NCBI GenBank assembly: GCA_964634935.1
Contig: CAZWJT010000002.1
Location: 10,570-74,569 of the forward strand
Direction of reading: 5' to 3'
Source of the DNA: an uncultured Planctomycetia bacterium
Lineage (GTDB): Bacteria > Omnitrophota > Gorgyraeia > Duberdicusellales > Duberdicusellaceae
DNA length: 64,000 nucleotides
In this document: one piece after another, positions 5,014 through 20,230 of the stretch
Layout: each line of letters opens with the position of its first letter
Numbering within the stretch: position 1 is the first letter of the stretch
Position numbers and translations under genes: made by a program
Notes under the pieces: model-generated
What the model was told of the DNA's origin: nothing
The model's input: only the letters and a program-made list of their open reading frames with translations
Databases searched by the model: none

Positions 5014-8000
5014 ATGAGGTTTAAAACGATATTTTTTCTTACGCTTCTTGGTTTTCATTTCTGCGGTGTTTGTTGTTCTGGCTACGCGGAGGATGAGAGC
5101 CTTTCTCAGAAAGCGGCAAACCAAGTCATCGACAGCCTGCCTGATTTCATAAAAGATGTTCAGGCGATGCGGAATATGACTCCTCAGCAGAAAATCGATT
5201 ACCTTATGGGTGCGGTTGATGACCGGGTGAAAGAGAAGGTAAGCGAGAAATTCAAGGATCAAATCAAAGATAAAGTGAAAGATTTTACAAGAGCTGCTCT
5301 GCGGGCGCGCGCGTTCCAGGAATTCGGCATTCCTCAAATCCGCAATGCATTTGTTTTGGGCGAAGCGGTCAATTGGGGCAAGATTGAATCTGAGATCGTT
5401 TCCAACGTGGACACGAAGATGCGTATGTTTGATGCCGGATGGAAAGCCGCCGAAATCGGTTGGGGAGCCTATGAGGCATACGCGACAGGTGATGCGGTGG
5501 CGGCTGCGAAATCAATTAGCGGCAGCGTCTGTGAACTTTTGGCTGAGGCTTACATTCCAGGGTGGGGATGGATTAAGTTTGGAGCCAAGATGGTCGAAGC
5601 GCTGGGTAATTATGTTCTTTCATATGCCACGGATACCGCTGTTCAGGGTATGCTTGAAGATATGTATGGCATGAAATCGAATCCCTCGGGTTTTGCAGAT
5701 TGGTTGATTAAACAGTCTCCGCAGGCGATTATGGCGGATTTAAACAGTAAATGGGATGATGGCATGGCGTTTGGCTATCTCTGGCAGGGACAGGGAACGG
5801 ATAAAGGCGACGAAGAGATGAAGTCGCGTTTGCAATCGGTTCTTGTCGGGCTGCGTGGCCAGCTTCTTGCGAAAATCAAGGAAGAAGAAGCCAAAGAAAA
5901 AGAGCTTCAGCAGTATATGGAGCAGTATAACCAGGAGACAGAGAAGAGAGCGAAAGACTTGCAGTCTGTTGCAAAACAGGCTACCGATGAAGCAGAAAAG
6001 ATTTTGGCTCCAGTAAAATCGTTCCGCGAGAAATACTACGGGATTCGTAAACAAGAAGTTCAACAGCAGGAAACAAGAATCCGATCGCAAATGGTAGGCG
6101 GAGCAGGAATTGCGTATTCTTCTCTTAACTACAAAGGGCTGGTCAATATCTATAGAAACGCGCTGTCAGAAGTAAAAGACGGGCCTTCGAAAAGCGGCTT
6201 TGATAAAGAGGCCTACGAGCGTATGTACAATGAGTATGGTCCGGCAGTCGCAAAGGAATTAAAACGTTTCAGTGAGACGAATGAAGCGGCAATACAGGCC
6301 GCGGGAAAGGCCATGTGGGCGGCGTGGGGTCCTCAGTTTGATGCGCTCTCAACGCAGATTAACGCGGCTTTTAAGCGAGGGGATCATAGAACAGTAGAAG
6401 CGTTAAATAATCAGCTTGCCGCTTTGAACGCGCGATTTGCTCCGGTGCAACAGGCACACGCGAAAGCAGTCAGCGAGGCGCGCACAAAGATGGCGCTTGA
6501 AGAACAACTTTTGGGGACAGAGTATACGCTCGCAACGCTTGAAGCTACAGAACGAGGAGCAAAATTCGGCATGCGCATCGTAGAGGCGTATAAGTCAATC
6601 AATGATCAGTTGTCGAAAGCAAACACAGAGCTTGGCCTTGGCTTAAAAATATTGCGCGAAAATATCCATAAACTTAACTATCCAGGTTTATGGCGCCATG
6701 CTGGCAGTATTGCCGGAGCTATTGGCGGGGGTTACAGCGGTCCAGCTGAACAGCTGCGTAAAGGTGAGTATGAATTTTTTGTTGGTCCGGGGCATCTTTC
6801 AGGGGCGATTGCCAATGCTGAAGAAGAGGAGCGTAAACTCAAGGCAGACTTAGAAAAACTCAGTGAGCTTGACAGTGCAGAGCGGAAACTCTATGCGGCA
6901 TATCGCCAGGTAGTTGCTAACGCGTTCAATAGCTATCAAGCGGTCACTCCGGAACGGCTTCAGGTAATACATAAACCGCCAATTTTTTCAGGGGACCAGG
7001 AGGAAAATCGCCGCAATTCAATGATTGGTGCGGCTCGAAGTGGTAACCCGTCTTCGTTGGGAGATGAGTATTGGGGGATTGCTGATTTTCCCTATGTATC
7101 GTTTCCTGGAGGATATCCTCGTATTACCGGGACGATCATTTCTTTAGAGTTTTTAAACCAGATCGACAGTTTTCTGGGGAATCCATCTGAGCCGTATCGC
7201 GAGGCCTTAAAAAAGGTACAGCAAGATATTACGGCTTTACGCGGCTGGGCAGAAACTGACGAATTGGCAGGGATTATCAATCAGCTTGGTCCTCGGCTCT
7301 CCAAGCTTTTTGACCAGTACGCTTATTTTGGCGAAGGTATTCCTGGAATAATTTACAAATTTCGCGCGCTTCCTGAAGGAAAAGGCGGGCAGGGAACCAT
7401 TATTGATGAGCGCACCGTGTTGGATACGGCGGGTTATGTGTATCTTCAGGAGATGAAGGAAGTGTGGGAAAAGAATGGGCATCGTGTTGCGCAATTTGCC
7501 AATCTCGCAAAAGGATATGGGAAAGGCCATAACTATCCAAGGGATTATAACCCAAAGCGGTATATCGATAAGCTCCCTACCTGGCAGGGGATTCCTCAAA
7601 AGATTCAGATCTATGAACAGGCAATGATTCAGGCAATAAAAGAGAGTAAAGAGGCGTATGCTCAGGCTCGAAAGCAAATCGATGAGTTGAAAGACCAATT
7701 TGAGCAGTCGCGCAGCGGATTCGGCGCGATGAATCTGAAGAATATGCAGAATGTTCAAAAAACCCTGAAACTCATTATTCAGTACAATCTTGTTGCTCCA
7801 GGGTATACGGCAATGAAAGATGAGATTCTTCAGTTTGAAAAAGATATGGAAGAAGGAATCGCAACCTGGTTGGAAGAACAGAAAAAAAAGAATGAAGAAT
7901 ACCAGCGTCGGCAGGCAGAAGAAGCCAAATTCCAGGCGGAGGAGGCCCGCAAACAGGAAGAGGCAAGAAATCAGGATGCTTTAAAGCGGACCAATCCGGC

Positions 8001-9246
8001 TGAATACTATGGCTATCGAGTGGTGAGTAGCCGTCTGAATACATACTCGGTTGATGGTGTTTCCGGAGATATTATTGTTACTCGTGACAAGCTTGTTCAG
8101 GGGCAGCTGCATATTGACGCACAATTGAGCCATACAGATAAGGCAAAGACGCTTCTTTTCTCAGAAGATGGAGGAAGGACTTGGAAAGAAATACCACTAA
8201 GCGCGAACATCAGGTATTCGTTTTATCCGATGCCAAACAGGCTTTACAATCCTTTTGTCCAGATTAAAACCGAAGATCTTCTTGTAGTCAATCTCAAGCT
8301 TATTCCCAGCGCGAACGGGATTATCTATAAGGATGAAGATTTTAACCAGCAGGTAGTAGCCGCAGTTAAAGCGCTTGCCGAAGCATACGAGCGCCGGGAT
8401 TTATCGGGTTTTAGCGACCTTATTTCTCGGAATTATGCGGGAAATAAGACATTTCTCGAAGAAGGCGTTCGGTTTGATTTTGATCTTTTTCTCAATATTT
8501 CTTTGAAAATTTACATCAATCGCATTGAACAACGCGGAGATCGATTTGTCGTTGAAACCAAGTGGGATAAAAGCCAAACACCACGTCAGACAGGTCAGAC
8601 TCAAAAGACAACCGGACGAACCACGATTATGTTTGTAGTAGAGGATGGTAAACTCAAAGTTCAAAACCTGCGAGGAGATCTTCTCTATGCGACACTTTCT
8701 CCTGAAATTGCTCAAGCGAGTGGATTGTCTTCCGCCAAGGTTGAAGAAATCCGCACTGCTCGTGATGAGCGTAATCCGATACAACCGGGCGCGGGAACTA
8801 CAGATGATGATGGAGGGATCGCTTCTCCGGCGGCCACTTTGACTGTTACCACAAAAAGCTTGGAAGATGATTACGGTACCGGCGGCATGCCGGATCAGCA
8901 CATAGACTTTGCTACGGGTAATGTTATTTTAGGCGGAGCAGGAGGCGATATCGGACTTGAAGTGAATGGTTTCTGGGCACAAATAGGTGCCGGGATTAAA
9001 GAAGTCGGCACTTCATTCAATGCGACTACCGACGCTTCCGGAGTAACAGCGTTGGATAATAGCGTTTTTGGTCTTACAACAGGCAAAGTCTATATCTTTT
9101 TGACTACGGGTGGTTACTACGGTAAGCTTGAAGTGATTTCTTGGGATGAAGAAGACAGAGATCTTGATACTGTTTTTGATACCTCAATTGTGCAATTTCG
9201 CTATGCTGTCCAGACAAATGGGACATCCGATGTAACTACTCAGTAA
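5014..9246 (+). CDS. Giant (1410 aa) secreted coiled-coil protein, function unknown
   Basis: Signal peptide MRFKTIFFLTLLGFHFCGVCCSGYA. Long K/E/Q-rich heptad stretches (e.g. EEQKKKNEEYQRRQAEEAKFQAEEARKQEEARNQ). Gly/Thr-rich beta-like C-terminal 250 aa. RBS GAGGAAACAATG. Confidence 0.6.
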   Translation: MRFKTIFFLTLLGFHFCGVCCSGYAEDESLSQKAANQVIDSLPDFIKDVQAMRNMTPQQKIDYLMGAVDDRVKEKVSEKFKDQIKDKVKDFTRAALRARAFQEFGIPQIRNAFVLGEAVNWGKIESEIVSNVDTKMRMFDAGWKAAEIGWGAYEAYATGDAVAAAKSISGSVCELLAEAYIPGWGWIKFGAKMVEALGNYVLSYATDTAVQGMLEDMYGMKSNPSGFADWLIKQSPQAIMADLNSKWDDGMAFGYLWQGQGTDKGDEEMKSRLQSVLVGLRGQLLAKIKEEEAKEKELQQYMEQYNQETEKRAKDLQSVAKQATDEAEKILAPVKSFREKYYGIRKQEVQQQETRIRSQMVGGAGIAYSSLNYKGLVNIYRNALSEVKDGPSKSGFDKEAYERMYNEYGPAVAKELKRFSETNEAAIQAAGKAMWAAWGPQFDALSTQINAAFKRGDHRTVEALNNQLAALNARFAPVQQAHAKAVSEARTKMALEEQLLGTEYTLATLEATERGAKFGMRIVEAYKSINDQLSKANTELGLGLKILRENIHKLNYPGLWRHAGSIAGAIGGGYSGPAEQLRKGEYEFFVGPGHLSGAIANAEEEERKLKADLEKLSELDSAERKLYAAYRQVVANAFNSYQAVTPERLQVIHKPPIFSGDQEENRRNSMIGAARSGNPSSLGDEYWGIADFPYVSFPGGYPRITGTIISLEFLNQIDSFLGNPSEPYREALKKVQQDITALRGWAETDELAGIINQLGPRLSKLFDQYAYFGEGIPGIIYKFRALPEGKGGQGTIIDERTVLDTAGYVYLQEMKEVWEKNGHRVAQFANLAKGYGKGHNYPRDYNPKRYIDKLPTWQGIPQKIQIYEQAMIQAIKESKEAYAQARKQIDELKDQFEQSRSGFGAMNLKNMQNVQKTLKLIIQYNLVAPGYTAMKDEILQFEKDMEEGIATWLEEQKKKNEEYQRRQAEEAKFQAEEARKQEEARNQDALKRTNPAEYYGYRVVSSRLNTYSVDGVSGDIIVTRDKLVQGQLHIDAQLSHTDKAKTLLFSEDGGRTWKEIPLSANIRYSFYPMPNRLYNPFVQIKTEDLLVVNLKLIPSANGIIYKDEDFNQQVVAAVKALAEAYERRDLSGFSDLISRNYAGNKTFLEEGVRFDFDLFLNISLKIYINRIEQRGDRFVVETKWDKSQTPRQTGQTQKTTGRTTIMFVVEDGKLKVQNLRGDLLYATLSPEIAQASGLSSAKVEEIRTARDERNPIQPGAGTTDDDGGIASPAATLTVTTKSLEDDYGTGGMPDQHIDFATGNVILGGAGGDIGLEVNGFWAQIGAGIKEVGTSFNATTDASGVTALDNSVFGLTTGKVYIFLTTGGYYGKLEVISWDEEDRDLDTVFDTSIVQFRYAVQTNGTSDVTTQ

Positions 9247-9376: not shown

Positions 9377-9455
9377 GGTGGGTGTAGCTCAGTTTGGCTA
9401 GAGCACTTGACTGTGGCTCAAGATGTCGAGGGTTCAAATCCCTTCACCCACCCCA
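9377..9455 (+). tRNA. tRNA-His (anticodon GUG) with extra G-1 and encoded 3' CCA
   Basis: G(-1) precedes acceptor GTGGGTG/CACCCAC. Anticodon loop CTGTGGC. T-arm GAGGGTTCAAATCCCTT. Discriminator C followed by CCA in the DNA. Confidence 0.8.
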
Positions 9456-9462
9456 TATTTAA

Positions 9463-9518
9463 CCCTCATGCGAACCCGGACTCTTCGGAGCCACAAACGC
9501 ATGAGGGTTTTTCTTTTT
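9463..9518 (+). terminator. Hairpin plus T-run immediately after tRNA-His
   Basis: CCCTCATGCG ... CGCATGAGGG (10-bp stem, large loop) followed by TTTTTCTTTTT. Confidence 0.5.
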
Positions 9519-9553
9519 CTGGTGGGGAAGCGCTTGAGTTTGCTCCCCAAGAG

Positions 9554-10084
9554 ATGGTCGAGTTTATCAAATATCTGAAGAGCTATTCTTCGATATGGCC
9601 GAGAACTTACTTTTGTGAATTTCCTTTCTTTATCTCCATTACCAATTTTAAACGAAAAATATGCTTTGGAACACGGCCCGAAGACTTGGCCGATATGGGG
9701 ATTATTCATCAAAAAGCATGGGAAAGGCATCAGGCGCATTTAAATCGTCTGTCCCGATTTCCGCTTGATAAGGCAGAATATTATCAAAGGTTGAAGGAGA
9801 TGCATGCGGTGAATACCGTTCGTGGGCTTTCGACAATAACAGGGGAGGACTGGTCGTATATTGCTAAGATTCTTAGAGTTTTATTATTGCCGGAACCAAT
9901 TAAAGATTTTTTGAGGAATAATAAGAGCAATTCTGAGATTGTGAAGTTCTTCACTCTACGTCGTCTTCTTAATATTGTGCGGCAACGTGAGGAAAGGCTT
10001 CAATTAAGCTATTTCAGTGAGCTTATGGAAAAATATGGGATGGCGTTTATCGACTCTTGGACGCAGGATAACATCAAAAGATGA
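9554..10084 (+). CDS. Hypothetical protein (first gene of the island downstream of tRNA-His)
   Basis: ORF track 9407..10084 begins inside the tRNA. The first ATG downstream of the tRNA terminator is 9554 (MVEFIKYL...). No recognisable domain. Confidence 0.4.
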   Translation: MVEFIKYLKSYSSIWPRTYFCEFPFFISITNFKRKICFGTRPEDLADMGIIHQKAWERHQAHLNRLSRFPLDKAEYYQRLKEMHAVNTVRGLSTITGEDWSYIAKILRVLLLPEPIKDFLRNNKSNSEIVKFFTLRRLLNIVRQREERLQLSYFSELMEKYGMAFIDSWTQDNIKR

Positions 10085-10119
10085 ATCAAATCGCCGTGCC
10101 TAAATGTCCATTCCGTATG

Positions 10120-10147
10120 AATGTCCGCTCATTAGCGGACATTTTCT
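10120..10147 (+). terminator. Stem-loop after the hypothetical gene
   Basis: AATGTCCGCT-catt-AGCGGACATT followed by TT. The T-run is short, so this is a weak call. Confidence 0.3.
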
Positions 10148-10388
10148 AGCCAGCAGACATTTATAATAAAAGCGTAGGAACTGAAATTCCAATTAAGTTT
10201 ATTCACTTTTTCTGTATTCGGAAAAACAAGTAATATTTTGGGCTTCAAACGGCTCAAATTAGCCTGAAAAATAGTCTATTCCTGCAAAAATTGATTATTT
10301 TGCAGGCTTACGATAAAATGCCTTCGTTTTAGGTATTTGAGAATTTTTTTGATATTTTAGCCATAACATCGTGCAAGAAAAAAAAGAA

Positions 10389-10417
10389 TTGACAAATATT
10401 TGTTAAAATGGTATTAT
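10389..10417 (+). promoter_or_regulatory. Sigma70-like promoter TTGACA-N17-TATTAT for the ATPase/TOPRIM operon, overlapped by the near-palindrome TTGACAAATATTTGTTAA
   Basis: The -35 is 10389..10394 and the -10 is 10412..10417. The -35 lies inside an imperfect 9-9 inverted repeat, which could be an operator. Confidence 0.45.
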
Positions 10418-10462
10418 TACATTGTCAATAACGCTCAAAATAAGTATTTCAGGAGGGATAAA

Positions 10463-11689
10463 ATGATTCATTCATTTACGTTCAAAAATTTTTGTTCCTT
10501 TGCAAATAATGCCACAATATTGTTTCAGGATATTCGCAAAGGAGTAGAAACTAAGAGTAATATGTTTTGCGACACCTCGTTAGGCGACCGTGTAAGCAAA
10601 GTTATGATCGTGGTTGGGCCTAACGCGTCTGGTAAGACAAGCGCCCTTAAGGCGTTGGCTTTTCTTAGTTGGTTTGTGCGAAATTCCTTTGTTGGGCTGG
10701 AAGGGGAAAAGGAGCCAATCCCTGTCGATAATTTCGCTTTCTCAGAGGATAAAGAAAGCGTGTCGGAATTCGAATTGGTTTTTGATCACAAAGATGTTGT
10801 TTATAAATATATCCTGCATTTATGCAAAACCCATGTCATAAAGGAAGAGCTATACCGCAAAGAAGATACCCAGCATTTTAATTATATATTCAAGAGAAAT
10901 TGGAACGCACAGGCGGGGAGTTCTGAGATTGTTCAGCGCATAAATTTAAAGACAGAAATTCTTAAAGAAATCTTGCGCAAGAACGTGTCTTTAATTGCCG
11001 CGTCAGTCGCGATAAAGAACGATTTTCTTACAGATATTGCCGGGTTCTGGGAGAAGATCATTAGCAACGTTAATCGCATGGGAAAATCATGGGACACTTC
11101 TTCGCTTGGCGAACGCGGCTTATTTGAAGCCACAGAGGCCTATAATAAAAATCAAAATCTTTTTGTTAAAGTTGTTCAGTTTTTGAAAGACATTGATCTT
11201 GGTTTAGAGGGAGTGTTGATCGAAGAGGGAGAAGCTCGAAATCCTAAAACCGGAGAAGCGAAGAAAATTTATTTGCCATATGGCGTGCATAAGGTTAAGG
11301 ACAAGCAATATAAATTACCGTTAGCTTTTGAATCCAGCGGCACAAAAAATATGTTTGTGCTTTTGCATTTTCTTTTGCCAGCTATTGAGCAGGGCGGGCT
11401 TGCGGTAATAGACGAGCTTGAGATCGATTTGCATCCTCACGCCGTCCCGCAAATAATCGAGTTGTTCGCTAACCCAGCCACCAACCCTAAAAATAGCCAA
11501 CTCCTTTTTACTTCACATTCCCTGGAGGTTCTTAACCATCTTGAGAAGGAACAAATTGTTCTGGTTGAGAAAAAACAGGAGTGTAAAAGTGAGCTTTATC
11601 GGCTTGATGAATTGAAAGGAATACGTCGCGACGATAACATCTACGCAAAATATATGGCCGGTGCTTATGGCGCGGTTCCAAACATATAA
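10463..11689 (+). CDS. AAA_21/AAA_15 (ABC/OLD-type) ATPase, AbiLi/RloA/AriA-like
   Basis: Walker A VVGPNASGKTSALKAL. C-terminal ESSGTKNMFVLLHFL ... AVIDELEIDLHP ... LLFTSHSLEVL signatures. The ORF track starts at TTG 10400, but ATG 10463 has a strong RBS (AGGAGGG). Confidence 0.75.
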   Translation: MIHSFTFKNFCSFANNATILFQDIRKGVETKSNMFCDTSLGDRVSKVMIVVGPNASGKTSALKALAFLSWFVRNSFVGLEGEKEPIPVDNFAFSEDKESVSEFELVFDHKDVVYKYILHLCKTHVIKEELYRKEDTQHFNYIFKRNWNAQAGSSEIVQRINLKTEILKEILRKNVSLIAASVAIKNDFLTDIAGFWEKIISNVNRMGKSWDTSSLGERGLFEATEAYNKNQNLFVKVVQFLKDIDLGLEGVLIEEGEARNPKTGEAKKIYLPYGVHKVKDKQYKLPLAFESSGTKNMFVLLHFLLPAIEQGGLAVIDELEIDLHPHAVPQIIELFANPATNPKNSQLLFTSHSLEVLNHLEKEQIVLVEKKQECKSELYRLDELKGIRRDDNIYAKYMAGAYGAVPNI

Positions 11690-11705
11690 ATAAGGGAGCC
11701 GCGAT

Positions 11706-12248
11706 ATGACGCCAAGACGAATAAAGCCGACCAGAAACACAAAAACAACTGTTCTCATTGTAGGCGAAGGCCCTACCGAGAAAGCATTTTTGCAATATCT
11801 CAAGGAGTTATACGTCGCGTGTGATTATGCCTGTGCCGTAAAAGTAGAATGCGGTTCTGGCGGCTCACCTCGCTGTGTAGTGCAAAAAGCCATACGTTTA
11901 CGAGGTAGCAGGGCTTATGATAAGTGTTACGTGCTTTTTGACGCGGATAGGCCGCTTGAAACTGATTATAAATTATCTGATCGCATGAATAAGCGGCCTC
12001 GCGTTGAAGTTCTCAAGGCCACGCCATGCATAGAGGGGTTATTTTTGGCAATATTGAAACACCCCGGATTTTCTCAAGGAAGCGCCGCGTCACATGATTG
12101 CAAACGGGATTTCCATGCCGGTTACATATCCGAAGACAAAAAGATGGACAAACGGTCATATGGGGGGAAGTTTCCAAAAACGATACTGGATAGCCAAAGA
12201 GCGCAGGTTGCAGAGTTAGACCTTATTTTAAAGGCAATGCAGGTTTAG
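11706..12248 (+). CDS. RloB/DUF4276-like TOPRIM protein (AbiLii/OLD-nuclease-like partner)
   Basis: N-terminal basic tail then VLIVGEGPTEKAFLQYL (TOPRIM Glu) and VLFDADRP (DxD). Sits 16 bp after the ATPase gene; RBS AAGGGAG. Confidence 0.6.
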   Translation: MTPRRIKPTRNTKTTVLIVGEGPTEKAFLQYLKELYVACDYACAVKVECGSGGSPRCVVQKAIRLRGSRAYDKCYVLFDADRPLETDYKLSDRMNKRPRVEVLKATPCIEGLFLAILKHPGFSQGSAASHDCKRDFHAGYISEDKKMDKRSYGGKFPKTILDSQRAQVAELDLILKAMQV

Positions 12249-12316
12249 TGAATTTGCTTCAGGCGGTGTCGTCAGCAGGACGTTGTGGGTACCGGGAGCA
12301 ATAAACGGAGGATTTT

Positions 12317-12664
12317 ATGGGTGAAATAAAGGAACTTACAGAGAAAATAAAAGAATTCCGTGACGAGCGAGATTGGAAACAATTTCATAATCATAAGGAT
12401 ATGTCTCTCTCACTAATGCTTGAGGCAGCTGAAGTTTTAGAGCACTTTCAGTGGAAATCACAGAGCGAAGTCGAAAAACATGGAAATGCATGCAAAAATG
12501 AAATAGCTGAAGAGCTCGCTGATGTTGCTATGTACCTATTTGAGCTCGCAGATAATCTTGGTATTAATTTGTCCGATGCTATTGAGCATAAGCTGACAAA
12601 AAATGCTAAAAAGTACCCTGTAGAGAAAGCTAAAGGTAAACACACAAAATACGATAAATTATGA
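12317..12664 (+). CDS. MazG-like nucleoside triphosphate pyrophosphohydrolase (small all-alpha NTP-PPase)
   Basis: IKEFRDERDWKQFHNHKDMSLSLMLEAAEVLEHFQWK and EELADVAMYLFELA are typical of the MazG/dUTPase-like fold. RBS GGAGG. Its stop overlaps the next start (ATGA). Confidence 0.7.
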   Translation: MGEIKELTEKIKEFRDERDWKQFHNHKDMSLSLMLEAAEVLEHFQWKSQSEVEKHGNACKNEIAEELADVAMYLFELADNLGINLSDAIEHKLTKNAKKYPVEKAKGKHTKYDKL

Positions 12665-15075
12665 GGCTTTACTCGGGAACATCACAGCAATTCATTCAAG
12701 ATGCAATTCATAACCAAATCGCAGAGAAGTTAAAGAACGCATTTTTCGGATATTATCGTTACAATCCTTCCCCAGCGGAGATTAATTCTTGGCGCAACTC
12801 CCTTCGTTCGATTAGCCAAGTATTTCAGCATGCGGATCTGATGGATCATGGAGTTCTTCTTGAATACCAATTACCTTTAACTTCTCGCCGACTAGATTGC
12901 ATGATCTGTGGCCGTGATCAACAAAAAGCAGATAATGCTGTTATTGTGGAATTAAAACAATGGGATAGATGTGAAGAGGCGTATGGCGATAACGAAGTGC
13001 TCACATGGGTTGGAGGCGCAAAGCGAGAAGTATTACATCCTTCAGTCCAGGTTGGGCAATATCATCTTTACCTAGAAGATACGCACACAGCATTTAATGT
13101 TGATGATGACCCTGTTACCCTGAACGCTTGTACTTATTTACATAATTACAACTATTATTCCGACGACGTTATTTTTTCAGATAAATTCCAACTTCCTCTT
13201 AAACGGTATCCTCTATTTACTGCAGATGATGTTGAAAAGCTAACAGATTATTTGAGGGATAGACTTTTAACCGGAGACGGCCTAGATGTTTTACAAAGGA
13301 TCGAAGAAAGTAAATATCGTCCAAATAAAAAGCTCATGGATCACGTAGGTAACATAATAAAAAACAAAACAGAGTATATTCTGCTAGATGAGCAACTTAT
13401 CGTTTATGATGCTGTCTTGGGATGCGCAAAAAGAAGCTTCCATGATAAGCAAAAGTCTGTAATTGTTGTTAAAGGTGGCCCAGGCACTGGCAAGTCTGTT
13501 ATAGCAATTAACTTAATGGCTGACTTGCTATTGAAAGGTTACAACTCTCATTATGCCACTGGTTCAAAGGCTTTCACAGAGACATTGCGGAAGATCATCG
13601 GAACTCGCGGATCCGTACAGTTTAAATATTTTAACAGTTATGGTCAAGCAGAAGAGAATGCTGTAGATATTCTCATCGCGGATGAGGCCCATCGTATACG
13701 AGAGACAAGCAATAGTCGATTTACACCTCGCGCGAGCCGCTCCGAAATGACACAAATTGAAGAATTGCTTCGGGCGTCTAAGGTCGCGGTATTTTTTATT
13801 GATGATGACCAAGTAGTGCGTCCTAATGAAATAGGCTCTGTTGATTATATTAAGAGAATCGCAGACGATCGCAAAATCAAACTCCATGAATATGAATTAG
13901 AAGCTCAATTTCGTTGTAATGGATCTGATGCGTTTGTAAGTTGGATCAACAATACCTTAGGGATTAAAAGAACCGCCCATGTAATCTGGGATCAACATGA
14001 AGAATTTGATTTTAAGATATTTTCTAGTCCAATTGAACTTGAAAATGCCATACGTAATAATGTTGCACGAGGCTTTACTGGAAGAGTAACAGCTGGTTTT
14101 TGCTGGGATTGGTCGCTCCCGAATGAAGATGGTACGTTGAAAAATGATGTAATCATAGGAGATTATAAACGACCATGGGATGCAAAGCCGGAGGCTAAAC
14201 GCTTAGCTCCAGGTATTCCGAAAGCTTCCCTGTGGGCATATGATCCTAATGGTATTAATCAAGTTGGATGTGTGTATACTGCACAGGGTTTCGAGTTTGA
14301 TTATGTCGGAGTTATTTTTGGTGAAGATTTAGTATATGACTTTGATAAGCAAGAGTGGATCGGCAATTCGGCTAATTCCTCTGATAGCGTAGTTAAGCGG
14401 TCTAAGAACAAATTTGTGGATTTGGTAAAAAATACTTATAGAGTTTTATTAAGCCGAGGAATGAAGGGTTGTTACGTCTATTTTATGAATAAAGATACCG
14501 AGAGGTTTTTTAAATCACGAATTGAAGGTGATAATACACAAATAGATGAATCTTTAACCGTTTCTAGGCTTCTAGGTAGCGAGGTAGATTTTCTTGAACG
14601 TATTCTCCAAGACGTTGATAGCTCTTTGAAATACAAAGAATATTTACCAGTTTATACTTTGGCTGCGGCAGCCGGTGCATTCGGCGAAGGCATGGATGTT
14701 AAAGAAAAGGGTTGGATTAAGGTTAACATCGGTAAGGCTTTGAATAAAAAATTATTCGTTGCGAAAGTAATCGGTAAGTCTATGGAACCGTTAATTCCTG
14801 ATGGGAGCTATTGTGTGTTTAGTGCGAACGTTGTTGGCACGCGAGCGAATAAGATTGTTTTAGTTCAACACAGCAGCATTTCTGATCTTGATAGTGGCGG
14901 AAAATATACGGTGAAGAAATATACGAGTAAGAAAAAATACTCGTCAGATGACACTTGGGAACATGACGAAATAACTTTGTTGCCGCTAAATCCTGACTAC
15001 GCTCCCATCATAATACCGAATACCAATGAGGGCGAGTTTATGGTGATCGCAGAATTTATATCAGTATTAAAATAA
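12661..15075 (+). CDS. DUF2075-type nuclease/helicase: N-terminal PD-(D/E)xK motif, P-loop NTPase, C-terminal LexA/UmuD-type S24 autopeptidase domain
   Basis: RLDCMICG...AVIVELKQW matches D..ExK. Walker A VVKGGPGTGKSV and Walker B ILIADEAHRI. DUF2075 tail CVYTAQGFEFDYVGVIFGEDL. The C terminus has AAAAG (Ala671-Gly672) then 35 aa later VIGKSMEPLIPDGSYCVF (Ser707), TVKKY (Lys), LLPLNPDYAPIIIP, matching the S24 layout. Confidence 0.75.
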   Translation: MRLYSGTSQQFIQDAIHNQIAEKLKNAFFGYYRYNPSPAEINSWRNSLRSISQVFQHADLMDHGVLLEYQLPLTSRRLDCMICGRDQQKADNAVIVELKQWDRCEEAYGDNEVLTWVGGAKREVLHPSVQVGQYHLYLEDTHTAFNVDDDPVTLNACTYLHNYNYYSDDVIFSDKFQLPLKRYPLFTADDVEKLTDYLRDRLLTGDGLDVLQRIEESKYRPNKKLMDHVGNIIKNKTEYILLDEQLIVYDAVLGCAKRSFHDKQKSVIVVKGGPGTGKSVIAINLMADLLLKGYNSHYATGSKAFTETLRKIIGTRGSVQFKYFNSYGQAEENAVDILIADEAHRIRETSNSRFTPRASRSEMTQIEELLRASKVAVFFIDDDQVVRPNEIGSVDYIKRIADDRKIKLHEYELEAQFRCNGSDAFVSWINNTLGIKRTAHVIWDQHEEFDFKIFSSPIELENAIRNNVARGFTGRVTAGFCWDWSLPNEDGTLKNDVIIGDYKRPWDAKPEAKRLAPGIPKASLWAYDPNGINQVGCVYTAQGFEFDYVGVIFGEDLVYDFDKQEWIGNSANSSDSVVKRSKNKFVDLVKNTYRVLLSRGMKGCYVYFMNKDTERFFKSRIEGDNTQIDESLTVSRLLGSEVDFLERILQDVDSSLKYKEYLPVYTLAAAAGAFGEGMDVKEKGWIKVNIGKALNKKLFVAKVIGKSMEPLIPDGSYCVFSANVVGTRANKIVLVQHSSISDLDSGGKYTVKKYTSKKKYSSDDTWEHDEITLLPLNPDYAPIIIPNTNEGEFMVIAEFISVLK

Positions 15076-15085
15076 TAGGTTAGGC

Positions 15086-15790
15086 ATGATATTAAAACCC
15101 GGTGAAATAGTTTCTTATTTAACAATGTGCCAGCACGAAGGGGTAAACCTTCAGCGGGGCATGAATTTCCGGTTAAAGGGCGGGCTAAGTGTCATTTTAA
15201 TGAGCTTAAGAAAGAATGCCCCGTATGCTGATAGAGTCGAGGATGATGGTGGCGTTCTGATCTATGAAGGCCACGATGTTCCGAAATATCAGGGGTTAAA
15301 GCAAAATCCAAAACAAATTGATCAGCCAGGGCTTACTCCCTCAGGGGCATTAACCGAAAATGGCAAGTTTTTCAAAGCGGCCGAAGGATATAAGAAAAAT
15401 AATGGCATTCCAGAGCTCGTTAAAGTTTATGAGAAGATACGTAACGGCATTTGGACGTATTCTGGGATTTTTGAATTGATTGATGCATGGCAGGAAGCTG
15501 CTGGGAAGCGAAAGGTATTTAAATTCAAACTAAAAATTACCGATCGGTCAGAGGCCGATCGCGACCCTGCAAATAAGGACGACTTGGATCATACGCGCGT
15601 AATACCCACAGATGTTAAATTGGCGGTATGGGAGCGCGATAAAGGACGATGTGTTGTATGCAATTCGGCAAACAACTTGCACTTTGATCACATTATCCCA
15701 TTCTCAAAGGGCGGTACATCTTTAAAAGCAGAAAATATTCAATTGATGTGTGCAAGGCATAATCTAAATAAACGAGATAAATTAATTTAG
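15086..15790 (+). CDS. SRA(YDG)-like domain fused to an HNH endonuclease: putative type IV modification-dependent restriction enzyme
   Basis: C-terminal HNH: CVVCNSANNLHFDHIIPFSKGG...NIQLMCARHN. The N-terminal GGLSVILMS...YADRVEDDGGVLIYEGHD resembles the SRA motif S-V-L-SGG...Y-DD-D-G...YTG-GG. 10 bp after the DUF2075 gene. Confidence 0.55.
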   Translation: MILKPGEIVSYLTMCQHEGVNLQRGMNFRLKGGLSVILMSLRKNAPYADRVEDDGGVLIYEGHDVPKYQGLKQNPKQIDQPGLTPSGALTENGKFFKAAEGYKKNNGIPELVKVYEKIRNGIWTYSGIFELIDAWQEAAGKRKVFKFKLKITDRSEADRDPANKDDLDHTRVIPTDVKLAVWERDKGRCVVCNSANNLHFDHIIPFSKGGTSLKAENIQLMCARHNLNKRDKLI

Positions 15791-15970: not shown

Positions 15971-16148
15971 CCAAAGCCATCCCGGGAAATATCCACAGGA
16001 AATTTCCCGGGTATTCAAACGGCGAGGGGCAGGATTACATATCGCTACTTCCAATGTCTTCCTGAGCATATCAATCAGATCTTCTGAATATCAAATGGCA
16101 GAGGGTTTTGTCTGGTAAAGGAAAACCTTTTATAATATAATGTTTTAT
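15971..16148. repeat. 178-bp direct repeat, copy 1 (identical to 18686..18863); contains a palindrome and a consensus promoter
   Basis: Base-by-base comparison of the two copies shows identity over 178 bp. Internal inverted repeat CCCGGGAAAT-N11-ATTTCCCGGG at 15981..16011. Confidence 0.9.
16108..16136 (+). promoter_or_regulatory. Sigma70 promoter TTGTCT-N17-TATAAT at the 3' end of repeat copy 1
   Basis: -35 16108..16113, 17-nt spacer, -10 TATAAT 16131..16136. Points toward the gene starting at 16323. Confidence 0.6.
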
Positions 16149-16322: not shown

Positions 16323-16820
16323 ATGACAGAATTGCTTCAAGCACAAGTTCGATCTATCGGCGAGCATTACGTTGTTGCTCGGCTTACGACGCTGGGGTTT
16401 ATCGTGGGCTTGGCGCCTGAGAATACAAGAGCTGTTGATATTATTGCGATGAGCGAGGATGGCAAAAGAAACCTCCAGATTCAGGTTAAAACGCGAACGG
16501 AAGGCCGTTCTGCCGATAAAGGCTGGATGATGAGTGAGAAACACGAATCCTTAGTGAATGACAATTTATATTATATTTTCGTTACTTTACCGGAGCAATG
16601 GACTGACCGCGATCAACCGTCCACTTTTATTATTCCATCAAAGAAAGTGGCCGCTATTGTTAAGCAATCGCATAAAGACTGGACATCCAGCCCCGGGCGT
16701 AAAGGTCAAAAGCGTAACGATACCAAAATGAGACGAATCAAGCCGATCTATTCAGATTCTCCATCAATTCCTGCTGACTGGATGGATGAATACCGGGATA
16801 ATTGGGAGATTTTGAAATGA
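16323..16820 (+). CDS. Small hypothetical protein with a PD-(D/E)xK-like motif arrangement
   Basis: GEHYVVARL ... VDIIAM ... LQIQVK resembles the E / D / (E/Q)xK restriction-endonuclease-fold core. No other match. Confidence 0.4.
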   Translation: MTELLQAQVRSIGEHYVVARLTTLGFIVGLAPENTRAVDIIAMSEDGKRNLQIQVKTRTEGRSADKGWMMSEKHESLVNDNLYYIFVTLPEQWTDRDQPSTFIIPSKKVAAIVKQSHKDWTSSPGRKGQKRNDTKMRRIKPIYSDSPSIPADWMDEYRDNWEILK

Positions 16821-17470
16821 CTTTAGATCGATATGTCGCATGGGCCTTGGCTAATATTAACATAACCCTTCCCGTTTCCCGCAGAGTTGAGGAAGATTGG
16901 TTATATAATTGGTCGAGGACGTTGGATGCGATTAACAGCGTGACTGGGATATTTGAGGTTACGTCGTTGATATTCTCACGGTCTGAGTTTCTTGGCGGTT
17001 TATATCTTGGAAAAACGGCGGATACAACAGCTGACGATTTTAAACTGTTCTGGGATAAGTTCTTCCCGGAGGAGTATAAGGATTTTCATAATATGAGCGG
17101 CCAAGGTAAAGGTTCAGACATCTTCAATGTATTCAGAAATAATATCCTTCACTCAGGGACAGCAACGGCGATTAAATCTGGTGCCGATGATATTATTGGC
17201 TGGTTGATGGGATACGGGGTAAATCCCGATGGCAAGGGCATATCTTTTAAGGATCGGGCGTTTCATATTGACTGCCAGAATCTAACTACCGAGTTCAAAG
17301 AGGCGCTGAAGAAATATATTTCTTACTTGAAAGATGATACGGATGATTTAAACGGACAGGGCATTCCAAGCGTACGCTGGAGAAAAGGATTTTGGTATAC
17401 CTTAAAGCCTGTTTATATGGATTCTGCTTCATGGGGCGCTTTAGGTCGAGATAATAAGATTTATTCTTAA
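16817..17470 (+). CDS. Hypothetical protein, translationally coupled (ATGA) to the upstream gene
   Basis: ATG 16817 overlaps stop 16818..16820. No recognisable motif. Confidence 0.4.
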   Translation: MTLDRYVAWALANINITLPVSRRVEEDWLYNWSRTLDAINSVTGIFEVTSLIFSRSEFLGGLYLGKTADTTADDFKLFWDKFFPEEYKDFHNMSGQGKGSDIFNVFRNNILHSGTATAIKSGADDIIGWLMGYGVNPDGKGISFKDRAFHIDCQNLTTEFKEALKKYISYLKDDTDDLNGQGIPSVRWRKGFWYTLKPVYMDSASWGALGRDNKIYS

Positions 17471-17485
17471 TGCGAGAGGTTAATT

Positions 17486-18436
17486 ATGGCGAAAATTATA
17501 TGCTTCACTGCAATATTATTGCTGAATACTATTTTAGCAAGCGCGCAGGATACCCCTTTGGAAAAACAACTGACATTGATATACAAGAATGCGGAAGATG
17601 CAACCACCAAAGGCGATATCGAGCAGTCAGATTTTTGGTTGGCCAGATACATGGGTTTAACAGCCACAGATGAAAACACAAACCGTGGCTACCCCGATTT
17701 AATCCCATTGTTTAAAAAACGAGAGGATTTAAAACCCACAGCATTTATCTCTGGAAAGTACGATGATAGTTTTATCGAATTCTACGCTCGCGGAACATGT
17801 GGCATGTGGGGCGCGCCCGATGAAGGTATTGATAGAGAAAAGCGAGAATTTATAATTCAGTCCTATTCAGATGGTCGCTATTTTGTCGAGATAACAGCTT
17901 CGCCTCGGCTTGAGAATTGGTCTATTTTAAAAGAGCCCGCAGTTGTAGCCGTTATCCCTCTCGGGAAAAACCCCATTATCCATTCAGGTAAACTTGATAA
18001 AAATGCGGTTGCTAAACGCTTCAAGAATATGCCCTTTGATATCGGAGAAAGTTTTATCCACTACGTCTGGCAACCGGAAATGCACGATTTAGATGGGGAT
18101 GGCATACCTGAAGTATGGATCCGCTATATTAAGGCTTGGGCCGATGGTTTTTCTCAGGAATTGGCTATATATAAAATTAAAGATGACAGTGATCTTGTCC
18201 TATTAAAGCAGTTCTCCGGTGAAGCCGAAGGCATTGCCAGACGCCTTGACGGGAATGGGGTCGAGATAGGCACCGGCTTTACTAATAAGAATGTTGGGCA
18301 TCTAGGTTTTGATCAGACACGCCTTGAAATATGGGCATACAGAGATGGCAAATTCATAAAGACTTCCGAAAGGAATGTTCCCCATATTCTCTGGAGTAAT
18401 GCATGGGAGAAGTATTATTTTAATAGTCAAAAATGA
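17486..18436 (+). CDS. Secreted hypothetical protein (signal peptide)
   Basis: MAKIICFTAILLLNTILASAQD signal peptide. RBS GAGAGG. Confidence 0.5.
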   Translation: MAKIICFTAILLLNTILASAQDTPLEKQLTLIYKNAEDATTKGDIEQSDFWLARYMGLTATDENTNRGYPDLIPLFKKREDLKPTAFISGKYDDSFIEFYARGTCGMWGAPDEGIDREKREFIIQSYSDGRYFVEITASPRLENWSILKEPAVVAVIPLGKNPIIHSGKLDKNAVAKRFKNMPFDIGESFIHYVWQPEMHDLDGDGIPEVWIRYIKAWADGFSQELAIYKIKDDSDLVLLKQFSGEAEGIARRLDGNGVEIGTGFTNKNVGHLGFDQTRLEIWAYRDGKFIKTSERNVPHILWSNAWEKYYFNSQK

Positions 18437-18685: not shown

Positions 18686-18863
18686 CCAAAGCCATCCCGG
18701 GAAATATCCACAGGAAATTTCCCGGGTATTCAAACGGCGAGGGGCAGGATTACATATCGCTACTTCCAATGTCTTCCTGAGCATATCAATCAGATCTTCT
18801 GAATATCAAATGGCAGAGGGTTTTGTCTGGTAAAGGAAAACCTTTTATAATATAATGTTTTAT
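18686..18863. repeat. 178-bp direct repeat, copy 2
   Basis: Identical to 15971..16148. ORF-track ORFs 18508..18780 and 18554..18802 lie in it and are considered spurious. Confidence 0.9.
18823..18851 (+). promoter_or_regulatory. Sigma70 promoter TTGTCT-N17-TATAAT (repeat copy 2) driving gltA
   Basis: -10 18846..18851. gltA ATG 18935 with RBS AGAGAGGTGG. Confidence 0.6.
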
Positions 18864-18934: not shown

Positions 18935-20230
18935 ATGAATATTCCGGAATCAGGTAAGCCGCTCGATACGGCCGCAATAACAATTGGTGATAAGATCGTT
19001 TCCTGTCCTATTATCACAGGCGTTGAGAATGAGAAAGCCTTGGATATTTCTGGGCTTCGCAATAAAACAGGTTACGTGACGTATGACGAGGGATATGTCA
19101 ATACCGCCTCTTGCTTAAGCAGCATTACCTACATAGACGGGGAGAATGGAATATTGCGATACAGGGGGATTCCCGTGGAAGAACTTGCCGCAAAACGAAG
19201 CTTTATTGAAGTCGCTCATTTGCTTATTTTCGGGCACTTGCCGTCGGTTACAGAGAAAAGTACCTTTTCTAAACTTCTTACCAGTAACTGCATGATTCAT
19301 GACAATATGGTCAAGCTTTTTGATAACTTGCCCGGTTCAAGCCATCCCATGGCTACTTTGTCGGCAATGGTGGTGACGCTTTCTGCGTATTATCCTGAGT
19401 TGGTAAAGCCCGAGATGAACGCAGGGGAGATGAATAAAATTATTGCCGAACTTCTTGCCAAGATCAGGACCCTTGCGGCGTATTCATACAAAAAATCCAT
19501 CGGTGAACCTATCATTTACCCGAAACGCGAGTATAAATATGTCGAAAACTTTCTTCATATGATGTTTTCCACTCCTGTAGATGAATACCCCTTAGATCAA
19601 GAAGTGGTAGATGCCCTGGAAAAGATTCTTATCCTCCACGCTGATCATGAGCAGAATTGCAGTACTTCAACCGTGCGGTTGGTGGGAAGTTCTAAAGCCA
19701 ATCTTTTTGCGTCTATCTCTGCGGGTATTTGTGCCCTCTGGGGACCTTTACATGGCGGTGCGAATCAAGCCGTTATTGAGATGCTTGAGGCGATCGTTAG
19801 GGATAAGATAGATGTGAGGCATGTTATCGAGAAAGCAAAGGACAAAAATAATCCTTTCTTGCTTATGGGTTTTGGCCATCGAATTTATAAGAATTTTGAT
19901 CCCCGGGCGAGGATTATTAAGGAAATATGCGATAAAGTGCTCACGAAACTGGGTATCAATGATCCTTGTCTTGAGATTGCTAAAAAGATCGAGGAAGTAG
20001 CCCTGAAAGACGATTTCTTCATTCAACGCAAACTTTATCCTAACGTTGATTTTTACAGCGGCATAATTCTTCGCGCGATCGGTATCCCGACGAATATGTT
20101 TACCGTTATTTTTGCTATGGGGCGGCTTCCTGGATGGATCGCACATTGGAAGGAACAATGTGAGTCTCCCAATCAAAAGATTGGGCGACCCCGTCAAGTC
20201 TATATCGGAGCGCCACTGACGCATATATAA
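18935..20230 (+). CDS. gltA: Citrate synthase
   Basis: Canonical LILHADHEQNCSTSTVRLVGSS, GPLHGGANQAV, MGFGHRIYKNFDPRA motifs. Confidence 0.9.
   Translation: MNIPESGKPLDTAAITIGDKIVSCPIITGVENEKALDISGLRNKTGYVTYDEGYVNTASCLSSITYIDGENGILRYRGIPVEELAAKRSFIEVAHLLIFGHLPSVTEKSTFSKLLTSNCMIHDNMVKLFDNLPGSSHPMATLSAMVVTLSAYYPELVKPEMNAGEMNKIIAELLAKIRTLAAYSYKKSIGEPIIYPKREYKYVENFLHMMFSTPVDEYPLDQEVVDALEKILILHADHEQNCSTSTVRLVGSSKANLFASISAGICALWGPLHGGANQAVIEMLEAIVRDKIDVRHVIEKAKDKNNPFLLMGFGHRIYKNFDPRARIIKEICDKVLTKLGINDPCLEIAKKIEEVALKDDFFIQRKLYPNVDFYSGIILRAIGIPTNMFTVIFAMGRLPGWIAHWKEQCESPNQKIGRPRQVYIGAPLTHI

Follow-up and report, generated by a model that had tools for sequence, protein, structure and literature searches.

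Gene layout and predicted activities of the cassette

The window analysed here is a stretch of 64,000 nucleotides (nt) from an uncultured bacterium placed by GTDB in the Omnitrophota (assembly GCA_964634935.1, contig CAZWJT010000002.1, positions 10,570 to 74,569). It contains a two-gene cassette in which the gene of a MazG-like pyrophosphohydrolase of 115 amino acids (aa) overlaps that of an 804-aa protein joining a nuclease, a helicase and a C-terminal S24 autopeptidase domain of the LexA/UmuD/lambda CI type. The pair had been picked out by a model from the letters alone (the sequence-only reading) as a candidate new defence module that is switched on by self-cleavage. The locus is, with high probability, a cassette of a MazG-like protein and an enzyme resembling the anti-phage nuclease-helicase Nhi, carrying a functional S24 domain that cleaves itself. 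Its genes, domains and predicted active residues are as follows; a hyphen between residues marks the predicted scissile bond.

12317 to 12664, plus strand: gene of a MazG-like (DCTPP1/RS21-C6-like) all-alpha nucleoside triphosphate (NTP) pyrophosphohydrolase, 115 aa (PF12643)
12661 to 15075, plus strand: gene of the nuclease-helicase-S24 fusion protein, 804 aa, stop codon included (open reading frame and Pfam)
12661 to 13446, plus strand: N-terminal domain of restriction-endonuclease-like PD-(D/E)xK fold, aa 1-262
12895-12897, 12949-12951 and 12955-12957, plus strand: putative catalytic residues D79, E97 and K99
13453 to 14484, plus strand: DUF2075/Schlafen-group-3-type SF1 helicase domain, aa 265-608 (PF09848)
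From 13474 and from 13681, plus strand: Walker A GGPGTGKS (aa 272-279) and Walker B DEAHR (aa 341-345)
14527 to 14640, plus strand: variable linker, aa 623-660, from the end of the core (...FFKSRIE) to the cleavage-site region
14641 to 14685, plus strand: cleavage-site region YLPVYTLAAAA-GAFG (motif conserved across fusions)
14671-14673 and 14674-14676, plus strand: Ala671 and Gly672, predicted scissile bond
14650 to 15072, plus strand: S24 (LexA/UmuD/lambda CI type) autopeptidase domain (PF00717, AlphaFold2, Foldseek, hhalign)
14779-14781 and 14914-14916, plus strand: predicted S24 nucleophile Ser707 and general base Lys752

The two open reading frames (ORFs) are arranged as the sequence-only reading had described, the stop codon of the first and the start codon of the second sharing the letters ATGA. 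The first product matches PF12643 with E 8.6e-21 (74.4 bits against a cutoff of 27). In the second, Pfam places PF09848 (SLFN-g3_helicase, formerly DUF2075) at aa 265-608 with E 1.9e-88, and D79, E97, K99, GGPGTGKS and DEAHR are all invariant among homologues. The PD-(D/E)xK motif and the Walker motifs in a DUF2075 layout, both read earlier from the letters, are thereby borne out: the N-terminal domain has the conserved catalytic residues of a PD-(D/E)xK nuclease, and the middle domain is a DUF2075 helicase with Walker A and B. Single-sequence phmmer searches against PDB sequences returned only noise for the N-terminal 260 aa and for the C-terminal 179 aa, and there profiles and structure prediction were required.

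The PADLOC models, applied without curated cutoffs, match the 804-aa protein in part (PDC-S41, E 2.3e-17; AbiO, E 4.8e-14; Nhi, E 1e-13), and the matches to the Nhi and AbiO hidden Markov models are weak and span the helicase region only. Nhi of S. epidermidis (SERP2475) combines a PD-(D/E)XK nuclease with a DUF2075 helicase, has anti-phage activity and varies in its C-terminal domain (Bari et al., bioRxiv 10.1101/776245), and "Nhi-like" proteins have been defined by the nuclease plus DUF2075 architecture (Millman et al. 2022, bioRxiv 10.1101/2022.05.11.491447). The core of the window protein is this already described architecture. It shares with Nhi and Nhi-like proteins the order of N-terminal nuclease, SF1 helicase and variable C-terminal domain, the horizontal spread, the proximity to defence genes and, probably, a sequence-independent attack on phage DNA or replication intermediates. 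Nhi acts as a single gene and ends in a glyoxalase/bleomycin-resistance-like domain, whereas the window protein has the S24 autopeptidase in that place and its subfamily is usually paired with a MazG-like gene.

The S24 domain was recovered by profile and by structure. Pfam reports PF00717 (Peptidase_S24) at aa 664-798 (E 1.1e-9; 38.5 bits against a cutoff of 23.3), and the top PDB matches of a profile of 34 homologous C-termini are LexA, UmuD and lambda CI only, all of them with weak E-values. Modelled with AlphaFold2, aa 616-804 reach a predicted local distance difference test score (pLDDT) of 87.9, with low values (53-66) in the linker; the best 37 PDB matches of the S24 model in Foldseek comprise only LexA, CI and UmuD (E 1e-6 to 1e-3; template modelling score on the target 0.65-0.76). 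In an hhalign alignment to E. coli LexA (probability 90%), Ser707 falls on S119 (GKSM/GMSM) and Lys752 on K156 (YTVK/VTVK); the alignment stops short of the scissile segment. Thus the fold and the dyad agree with the LexA-like layout that had been claimed, and Ala671-Gly672, Ser707 and Lys752 are all present, but the spacing does not reproduce that of LexA: Gly to Ser is 35 here against 34, and Ser to Lys 45 against 37. The segment YLPVYTLAAAA-GAF resembles LPLVGRVAA-GEP of LexA, and the secondary structure assigned to the AlphaFold2 model by DSSP is partly helix in the cleavage-site segment. The S24 domain is real and looks CATALYTICALLY competent, and the C-terminal 133-140 aa are predicted to make up an S24 autopeptidase that is catalytically intact and includes a substrate site of its own, Ala671-Gly672.

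In LexA, UmuD and CI the S24 domain cleaves its own Ala/Cys-Gly bond once it sits in the groove of a filament of RecA, single-stranded DNA (ssDNA) and ATP. With these members of MEROPS family S24 the window protein shares the fold, the Ser-Lys dyad and an Ala-Gly site about 35 residues upstream in an LPxxxxxAAG context, and the residues ahead of its cut resemble the latent ClpXP degron of LexA (...VAA). It differs from LexA in a Ser-to-Lys spacing that is 8 residues longer, and from all three in what it carries at the N-terminus, an enzyme of 620 aa in place of a repressor domain or short tail. Pfam found no helix-turn-helix (HTH) domain in the 804-aa protein; lacking this DNA-binding element, it is not a LexA/CI-type repressor.

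Conservation of the pair and portability of the S24 domain

The contig index has no record of the exact 804-aa protein, and neighbourhoods were read from homologues and from GTDB loci. Gene order was counted at 80 species loci of homologues, 67 bacterial and 13 archaeal. Full-length homologues with both PF09848 and PF00717 (61-87% identical) form more than 100 clusters at 90% identity, and at least 596 species-representative genomes from many bacterial and archaeal phyla contain relatives. The identity of about 70% between Omnitrophota and Methanosarcina homologues argues for horizontal transfer. Complete E. coli genomes yielded no homologue. Phage records gave 4 distant matches only, all without S24, and plasmid records gave S24-less relatives and one S24-bearing Halomonas record. 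In the cultured strain Halomonas sp. PA16-9 (locus L086; NZ_CP040452.1, an unannotated 1.83-Mb replicon), the core and S24 of a 35% identical S24-bearing relative are separate blast pieces, the long ORF stops before S24 and MazG lies downstream; the separation may be a frameshift or a pseudogene.

A MazG-like gene accompanies the core at 55 of the 80 loci, which suggests a two-gene unit. It lies directly upstream on the same strand with a gap of 0-55 nt at 47 loci, is divergent at 2, stands 1.3-2 kb upstream at 2 and is found downstream at 4, so that the association survives a change of gene order. S24 is present on the core at 19 loci, all of them bacterial, and changes its state at least 12 times on a neighbour-joining tree of the cores. 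Because MazG pairs with the core irrespective of S24 (15 S24-bearing and 40 S24-less loci), the conserved unit is MazG plus nuclease-helicase. The sequence-only reading had expected the pair to be conserved with its S24 domain; the pairing with the core stands, and S24 turns out to be optional, a portable accessory outside the conserved core. For example, the S24-less orthologues P0093, P0101 and P0112 align at 78-84% identity over aa 1-622 and stop after ...FFKSRIE, where the variable linker starts. P0110 (705 aa, 78% identical over the core) carries a C-terminal HTH_3 (XRE) domain in place of S24, a further hint that accessory modules are swapped at the C-terminal position. At 8 loci (L004:285-569, L014, L016, L043, L050, L056, L061 and L062), several of them without MazG, a protein of about 94 aa without a Pfam match is encoded upstream of the core and might be an alternative partner.

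Closest to the MazG-like protein among PDB sequences are 4qgp, an uncharacterised pyrophosphatase (E 1.9e-20), and the dCTP pyrophosphatase 1 (DCTPP1)/RS21-C6 of mammals (E 3.5e-17). It shares with DCTPP1 and MazG-type pyrophosphatases the all-alpha MazG fold and the ExxE...ExxD metal sites. All 52 partner genes compared keep the metal-binding residues E36, E39, E66 and D69; catalytic activity is predicted from these four acids, and the protein is probably an active enzyme. MazG and DCTPP1 enzymes are classic house-cleaning enzymes, and DCTPP1 is selective for 5-modified dCTP. By this kinship we infer that the substrates of the partner would be (deoxy)nucleotides that are non-canonical or specific to phages, and not the bulk pool. 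The sequence-only reading had likened it to defences that deplete deoxynucleoside triphosphates (dNTPs), which is not favoured: nucleotide hydrolysis is a possible antiviral strategy common to both, but the MazG-like protein is not homologous to the dCTP deaminase or dGTPase enzymes, it has no PADLOC match at E <= 0.01, and constitutive depletion of the bulk pool by a 115-aa enzyme without a regulatory domain is unlikely. At three loci (L017:9290-9895, L049 and L073) a HIT-family nucleotide hydrolase (PF01230, E 1.2e-23) is encoded about 3 kb downstream of the core, a second type of neighbour that acts on nucleotides.

The S24 domain is found on many other enzymes. When 1.84 billion representative proteins were searched with a profile of S24 only (aa 654-804), 1545 clusters matched at E <= 1e-10, and 502 of them at E <= 1e-30; the 150 best matches were scanned with Pfam. 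Among these 150, in proteins of 144-1969 aa, S24 lies nearly always at the extreme C-terminus. Its partners are: i) DUF2075 helicases with a PD-(D/E)xK, a GIY-YIG or no nuclease; ii) ResIII/SNF2 helicases and DEAD-MZB-REase helicase-nucleases; iii) Type ISP specificity domains (Type_ISP_C) with an Eco57I/N6 methylase, and MmeI-type methylase/target recognition domains; and iv) AlwI, Mrr, LlaJI, DUF3427, DpnI_C, HsdS, HsdR-C, HNH_4, TnsA-like, PLD and Schlafen AlbA_2 domains. Of the 150 proteins, only about 5 have an HTH domain. The best-scoring representative, P0121 (287 aa), has two tandem S24 stretches and no other domain.

Across the fusions the motif (L/V)(Y/F)SLxAA(A/C)-GxF(G/S) is conserved, an AA(A/C)-G-type site being present in about 85% of the 150; the residues P3-P1 are AAA in 80, AAC in 33 and VAA in 9. 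The serine of GxSM (modal Gly-Ser spacing 35) and the lysine are likewise conserved, both of them invariant in 80 diverse fusions, and the proteins end 132-140 residues past the Gly. This joint conservation of Ser, Lys and cleavage site argues that the cleavage chemistry is under selection. About 13% of the subtype (e.g. P0119, P0129, P0171, P0174 and P0175) have a Gly-less variant, A(V/A)AT(S/T)F ("AVATSF"), that keeps Ser and Lys and may be non-cleaving or differently cleaving. Unlike LexA, UmuD and CI, the S24 subtype of the window protein forms a clade of its own that is carried almost exclusively by restriction and defence enzymes; it is a portable C-terminal module of DNA-targeting enzymes of this kind.

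Companion nucleases and genomic neighbourhood

The features that flank the cassette in the window are the following.

10400 to 11689 and 11706 to 12248, plus strand: AbiL system, AbiLi ATPase and AbiLii/RloB (PADLOC; Pfam AAA_21 and RloB)
15086 to 15790, plus strand: SRA-like plus HNH endonuclease, 234 aa, 11 nt past the S24 fusion gene (PF01844)

The defence-type context described by the sequence-only reading is supported by the adjoining AbiLi (PADLOC E 9.7e-77), AbiLii (PADLOC E 3.3e-11) and HNH genes. AbiL is absent beside all 80+ homologues, and AbiLi and AbiLii were rejected as parts of the cassette. The GC content is 0.36-0.42 over window positions 9500-15500 and 0.45-0.49 before; a tRNA-His(GTG) gene at 9378-9455 marks the upstream edge of the low-GC stretch. 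With AbiL, MazG, DUF2075-S24 and SRA-HNH in it, this stretch resembles a genomic island adjoining a tRNA gene. In a consensus scan of the five-gene run the only strong promoter-like site lies 5' of abiLi, and no plus-strand terminator was found inside the run; this lends weak support to co-transcription of the five genes.

Several further observations concern the surroundings of the island. An ORF at 9407..10084 with a weak ParB-HTH match overlaps tRNA-His and is a doubtful gene. Just 5' of tRNA-His, window positions 5014-9246 encode a 1410-aa ORF with a signal-peptide-like N-terminus and extended coiled-coil-like, low-complexity stretches. Downstream, a direct repeat of 178 nt (100% identity) occurs at 15971-16148 and 18686-18863, 2715 nt apart; the ORFs between its copies (16323..16820, 16802..17470 and 17486..18436) have no Pfam or PADLOC match, and the second copy lies directly 5' of a citrate-synthase-like ORF (18935..20230). 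The repeat pair could be an att-like duplication from an insertion.

The 234-aa protein matches PF01844 HNH with 28.6 bits (cutoff 21.4); SAD_SRA scores 22.2 bits, below its cutoff of 30.7, and there is a weak profile match to the SRA domain of SUVH9 (E 0.33). It is probably a modification-dependent (Type IV-like) nuclease. The same gene lies directly downstream of the S24 gene at L005, L068 and L081/L082, and with the type present at only 4-5 loci SRA-HNH was rejected as an obligate third component. Another 20 loci encode, 1.3-2.4 kb upstream of the core and on either strand, a protein of a different type that is about 300 aa long; its N-terminal half has no annotation, and an HNH_2 domain lies at its C-terminus. 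Its sole nuclease-related PDB match is the SRA-HNH enzyme TagI (E 0.47), and it matches the PADLOC "HNH" model PDLC04132. Examples are:

L007:3749-4663, L008, L013, L015, L017, L023, L030 and L060

HNH nucleases, possibly modification-dependent, are thus recurrent but non-obligatory companions of the cassette. That DUF2075 NTPases associate with modification-dependent nucleases had already been remarked on (PMC6765204).

In other genomes the 141 ORFs nearest to the cassette hold 145 Pfam families, many of them housekeeping. About 13% of these ORFs match PADLOC models at E <= 1e-10 (HNH, Dsr1, HerA, MADS, Cas1 and PDC candidates). The enrichment near defence genes that the sequence-only reading had anticipated is modest. 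At L084, the locus of P0093, an S24-less core (84% identical) with MazG lies between a CRISPR-Cas adaptation module (Cas4/Cas1/Cas2) and a umuD-umuC pair in which UmuD is a stand-alone S24 protein.

Proposed self-cleavage, its likely outcome and its possible biological meaning

By analogy with the systems named above, the locus would be a small, horizontally mobile, DNA-targeting defence cassette with presumed anti-phage activity. On the model of Nhi, the enzyme would unwind phage DNA or replication intermediates and break them down, and the co-expressed MazG partner would hydrolyse non-canonical or phage-specific nucleotides. The S24 tail would dock on RecA-ssDNA filaments like LexA, UmuD and lambda CI and cut itself off; that RecA* is the trigger of this cleavage is, by homology, rather probable. 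The restriction of S24 to bacteria, even though archaeal cores nest among S24-bearing bacterial ones, would suit a need for a partner found in bacteria, for instance RecA. Host DNA damage yields ssDNA and free ends, the very structures that the enzyme would attack, and the chromosome would be most at risk during the SOS response because an Nhi-like enzyme recognises ssDNA-containing intermediates and not sequences. Cleavage would leave an N-terminal product with the predicted end ...TLAAAA-COOH, an ssrA/LexA-like latent ClpXP degron, and the enzyme would then be destroyed. The outcome would be a built-in restriction alleviation, or safety switch.

Three considerations favour this off-switch: i) the same S24 subtype sits on restriction-modification (R-M) enzymes that are needed active in undamaged cells; ii) an effect independent of fold explains a module on dozens of unrelated folds more easily than auto-inhibition does; and iii) the LexA-like latent degron is a precedent for cleave-and-degrade. 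LexA-like proteins are described in PMC5742171 (citing Neher 2003 and Niu 2010) as having latent ClpXP C-degrons right before the cleavage site that are exposed only after cleavage. In potent C-degrons the last two residues are Ala-Ala and the consensus is [LFYW][LAR]LAA (PMC10862746). In EcoKI, DNA damage induces restriction alleviation through degradation of HsdR by ClpXP (PMC11109961). The logic proposed here is shared with Type I alleviation in general (PMC11109961, PMC4231737), where damage or recombination leads to proteolysis of a DNA-translocating nuclease and the chromosome is spared. The alleviation of EcoKI differs in that its signal is the stalled or translocating enzyme on unmodified host DNA, without any S24, whereas the sensor of the window protein would be built in and would read RecA*.

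A number of points weigh against this account. The degron is not universal: in about 26% of the family the end would be ...AAC instead of Ala-Ala, the Gly-less 13% lack the scissile residue, and in the window protein position 3 of the predicted degron is Ala, where Leu is optimal. The small residues ahead of the Gly may simply reflect the substrate preference of S24. The S24-less orthologues suggest that the core, once cleaved, would probably be stable and active as an enzyme; taken alone, this favours activation. The contrast between archaeal (0 of 13) and bacterial (19 of 67) loci reaches only Fisher p = 0.03, without phylogenetic correction. Co-evolution of MazG and core is weak in a mirror-tree comparison (Pearson 0.35, Mantel 0/2000 permutations, Spearman 0.06), and most immediate neighbours of the cassette elsewhere are not defence genes. 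The statement as a whole, with its off-switch direction, is accordingly advanced as a tentative one that falls somewhat short of an even chance.

The opposite direction had been proposed by the sequence-only reading: S24 would hold the enzyme inactive, or in an inactive dimer, until ssDNA and RecA* arising from a phage trigger cleavage at Ala671-Gly672 and free the nuclease-helicase, to which MazG adds nucleotide hydrolysis. The intact S24 domain and cleavage site agree with it, as does the presence of S24 in bacteria only. The S24-less orthologues end roughly where the cleaved product would end, so that this product is probably competent; UmuD, converted to UmuD', is an established precedent for activation by S24 cleavage; and the co-operonic SRA-HNH could break modified phage DNA and so load RecA. 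The same subtype is, however, found on Type ISP and MmeI/Eco57I R-M enzymes, which methylate and restrict without a damage signal, and these fusions fit an off-switch at least as well. Furthermore, to be auto-inhibited each of dozens of unrelated enzymes would require contacts specific to its fold, for a module that is swapped freely and that this family alone has gained or lost at least 12 times, and damage to the host would unleash a sequence-nonspecific nuclease-helicase on a chromosome rich in ssDNA gaps. Activation by cleavage is thus judged a rather unlikely direction, in spite of the support that the intact domain and the S24-less orthologues give it.

Two readings dispense with a switch over an immune enzyme. 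In LexA and CI the C-terminal domains dimerise, and S24 could be a rarely or never cleaving dimerisation module and/or a tether to RecA-coated ssDNA, comparable to the association of human Schlafen 11 (SLFN11) with RPA-coated ssDNA. A pure scaffold would have no need of the invariant Ser and Lys or of the cleavage site retained in most of the 150 fusions, and this role is improbable. Still less likely is a non-immune, SOS-wired module for repair and nucleotide sanitising, in which MazG cleans damaged dNTPs, the nuclease-helicase processes damaged DNA and S24 tunes the two. The house-cleaning role of MazG and DCTPP1 enzymes, the many housekeeping neighbours elsewhere and the S24-less relative adjoining a umuD-umuC pair would suit such a module. 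It fits poorly with the patchy distribution driven by horizontal transfer, the low-GC, tRNA-adjacent island features in the window, the adjacency to AbiL here and to CRISPR-Cas, Dsr1, HerA and MADS elsewhere, the recurrent HNH/SRA-type nucleases, and an architecture that is that of Nhi, a validated anti-phage enzyme.

As to novelty, the cassette joins an Nhi-like enzyme, a MazG house-cleaning enzyme and a LexA-type switch, and is not a categorically new system. The claim of a new module could apply only to the combination, the nuclease plus DUF2075 core having been described before. No description of DUF2075+MazG, of Nhi+MazG or of S24-tailed defence enzymes was found in the open-access literature, though comparative-genomics surveys or REBASE notes could hold one. 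For defence-finding pipelines the two additions, the C-terminal S24 and the MazG-like partner, would be new markers. The pairing of an Nhi-like enzyme with MazG, which is conserved and often near SRA/HNH nucleases, points to a cassette directed against phages with modified bases or unusual nucleotide pools.

The meaning of the S24 clade may reach beyond this cassette. With a probability close to even, though slightly under it, the clade puts many unrelated DNA-targeting immune enzymes under direct post-translational RecA*/SOS control, cleavage leading to their destruction or release; the same joint reading covers Nhi-like DUF2075 enzymes, Type ISP, IIG/IIL, I, III and IV restriction enzymes and YprA/MrfA-like helicase-nucleases. 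How restriction of the host chromosome is avoided during repair is mechanistically understood for only a few Type I systems (ClpXP alleviation), and an attachable, self-cleaving, RecA*-sensing tail would, if real, be a simple and general answer to the problem of protecting the chromosome. The pairing of DUF2075 with S24-RecA would then parallel SLFN11 at RPA-coated ssDNA. SLFN11, a group III Schlafen, differs in that its nuclease is the tRNA-cleaving SLFN core domain and not a PD-(D/E)xK motif, and the coupling of the window protein to ssDNA would run through S24 and RecA. A damage-inducible, self-removing degradation tag of this type would also be of use in synthetic biology. If the proposal is correct, this would be the first LexA/UmuD switch placed over an enzyme instead of a repressor or a polymerase subunit, and an undescribed general link between DNA-damage sensing and bacterial immunity.

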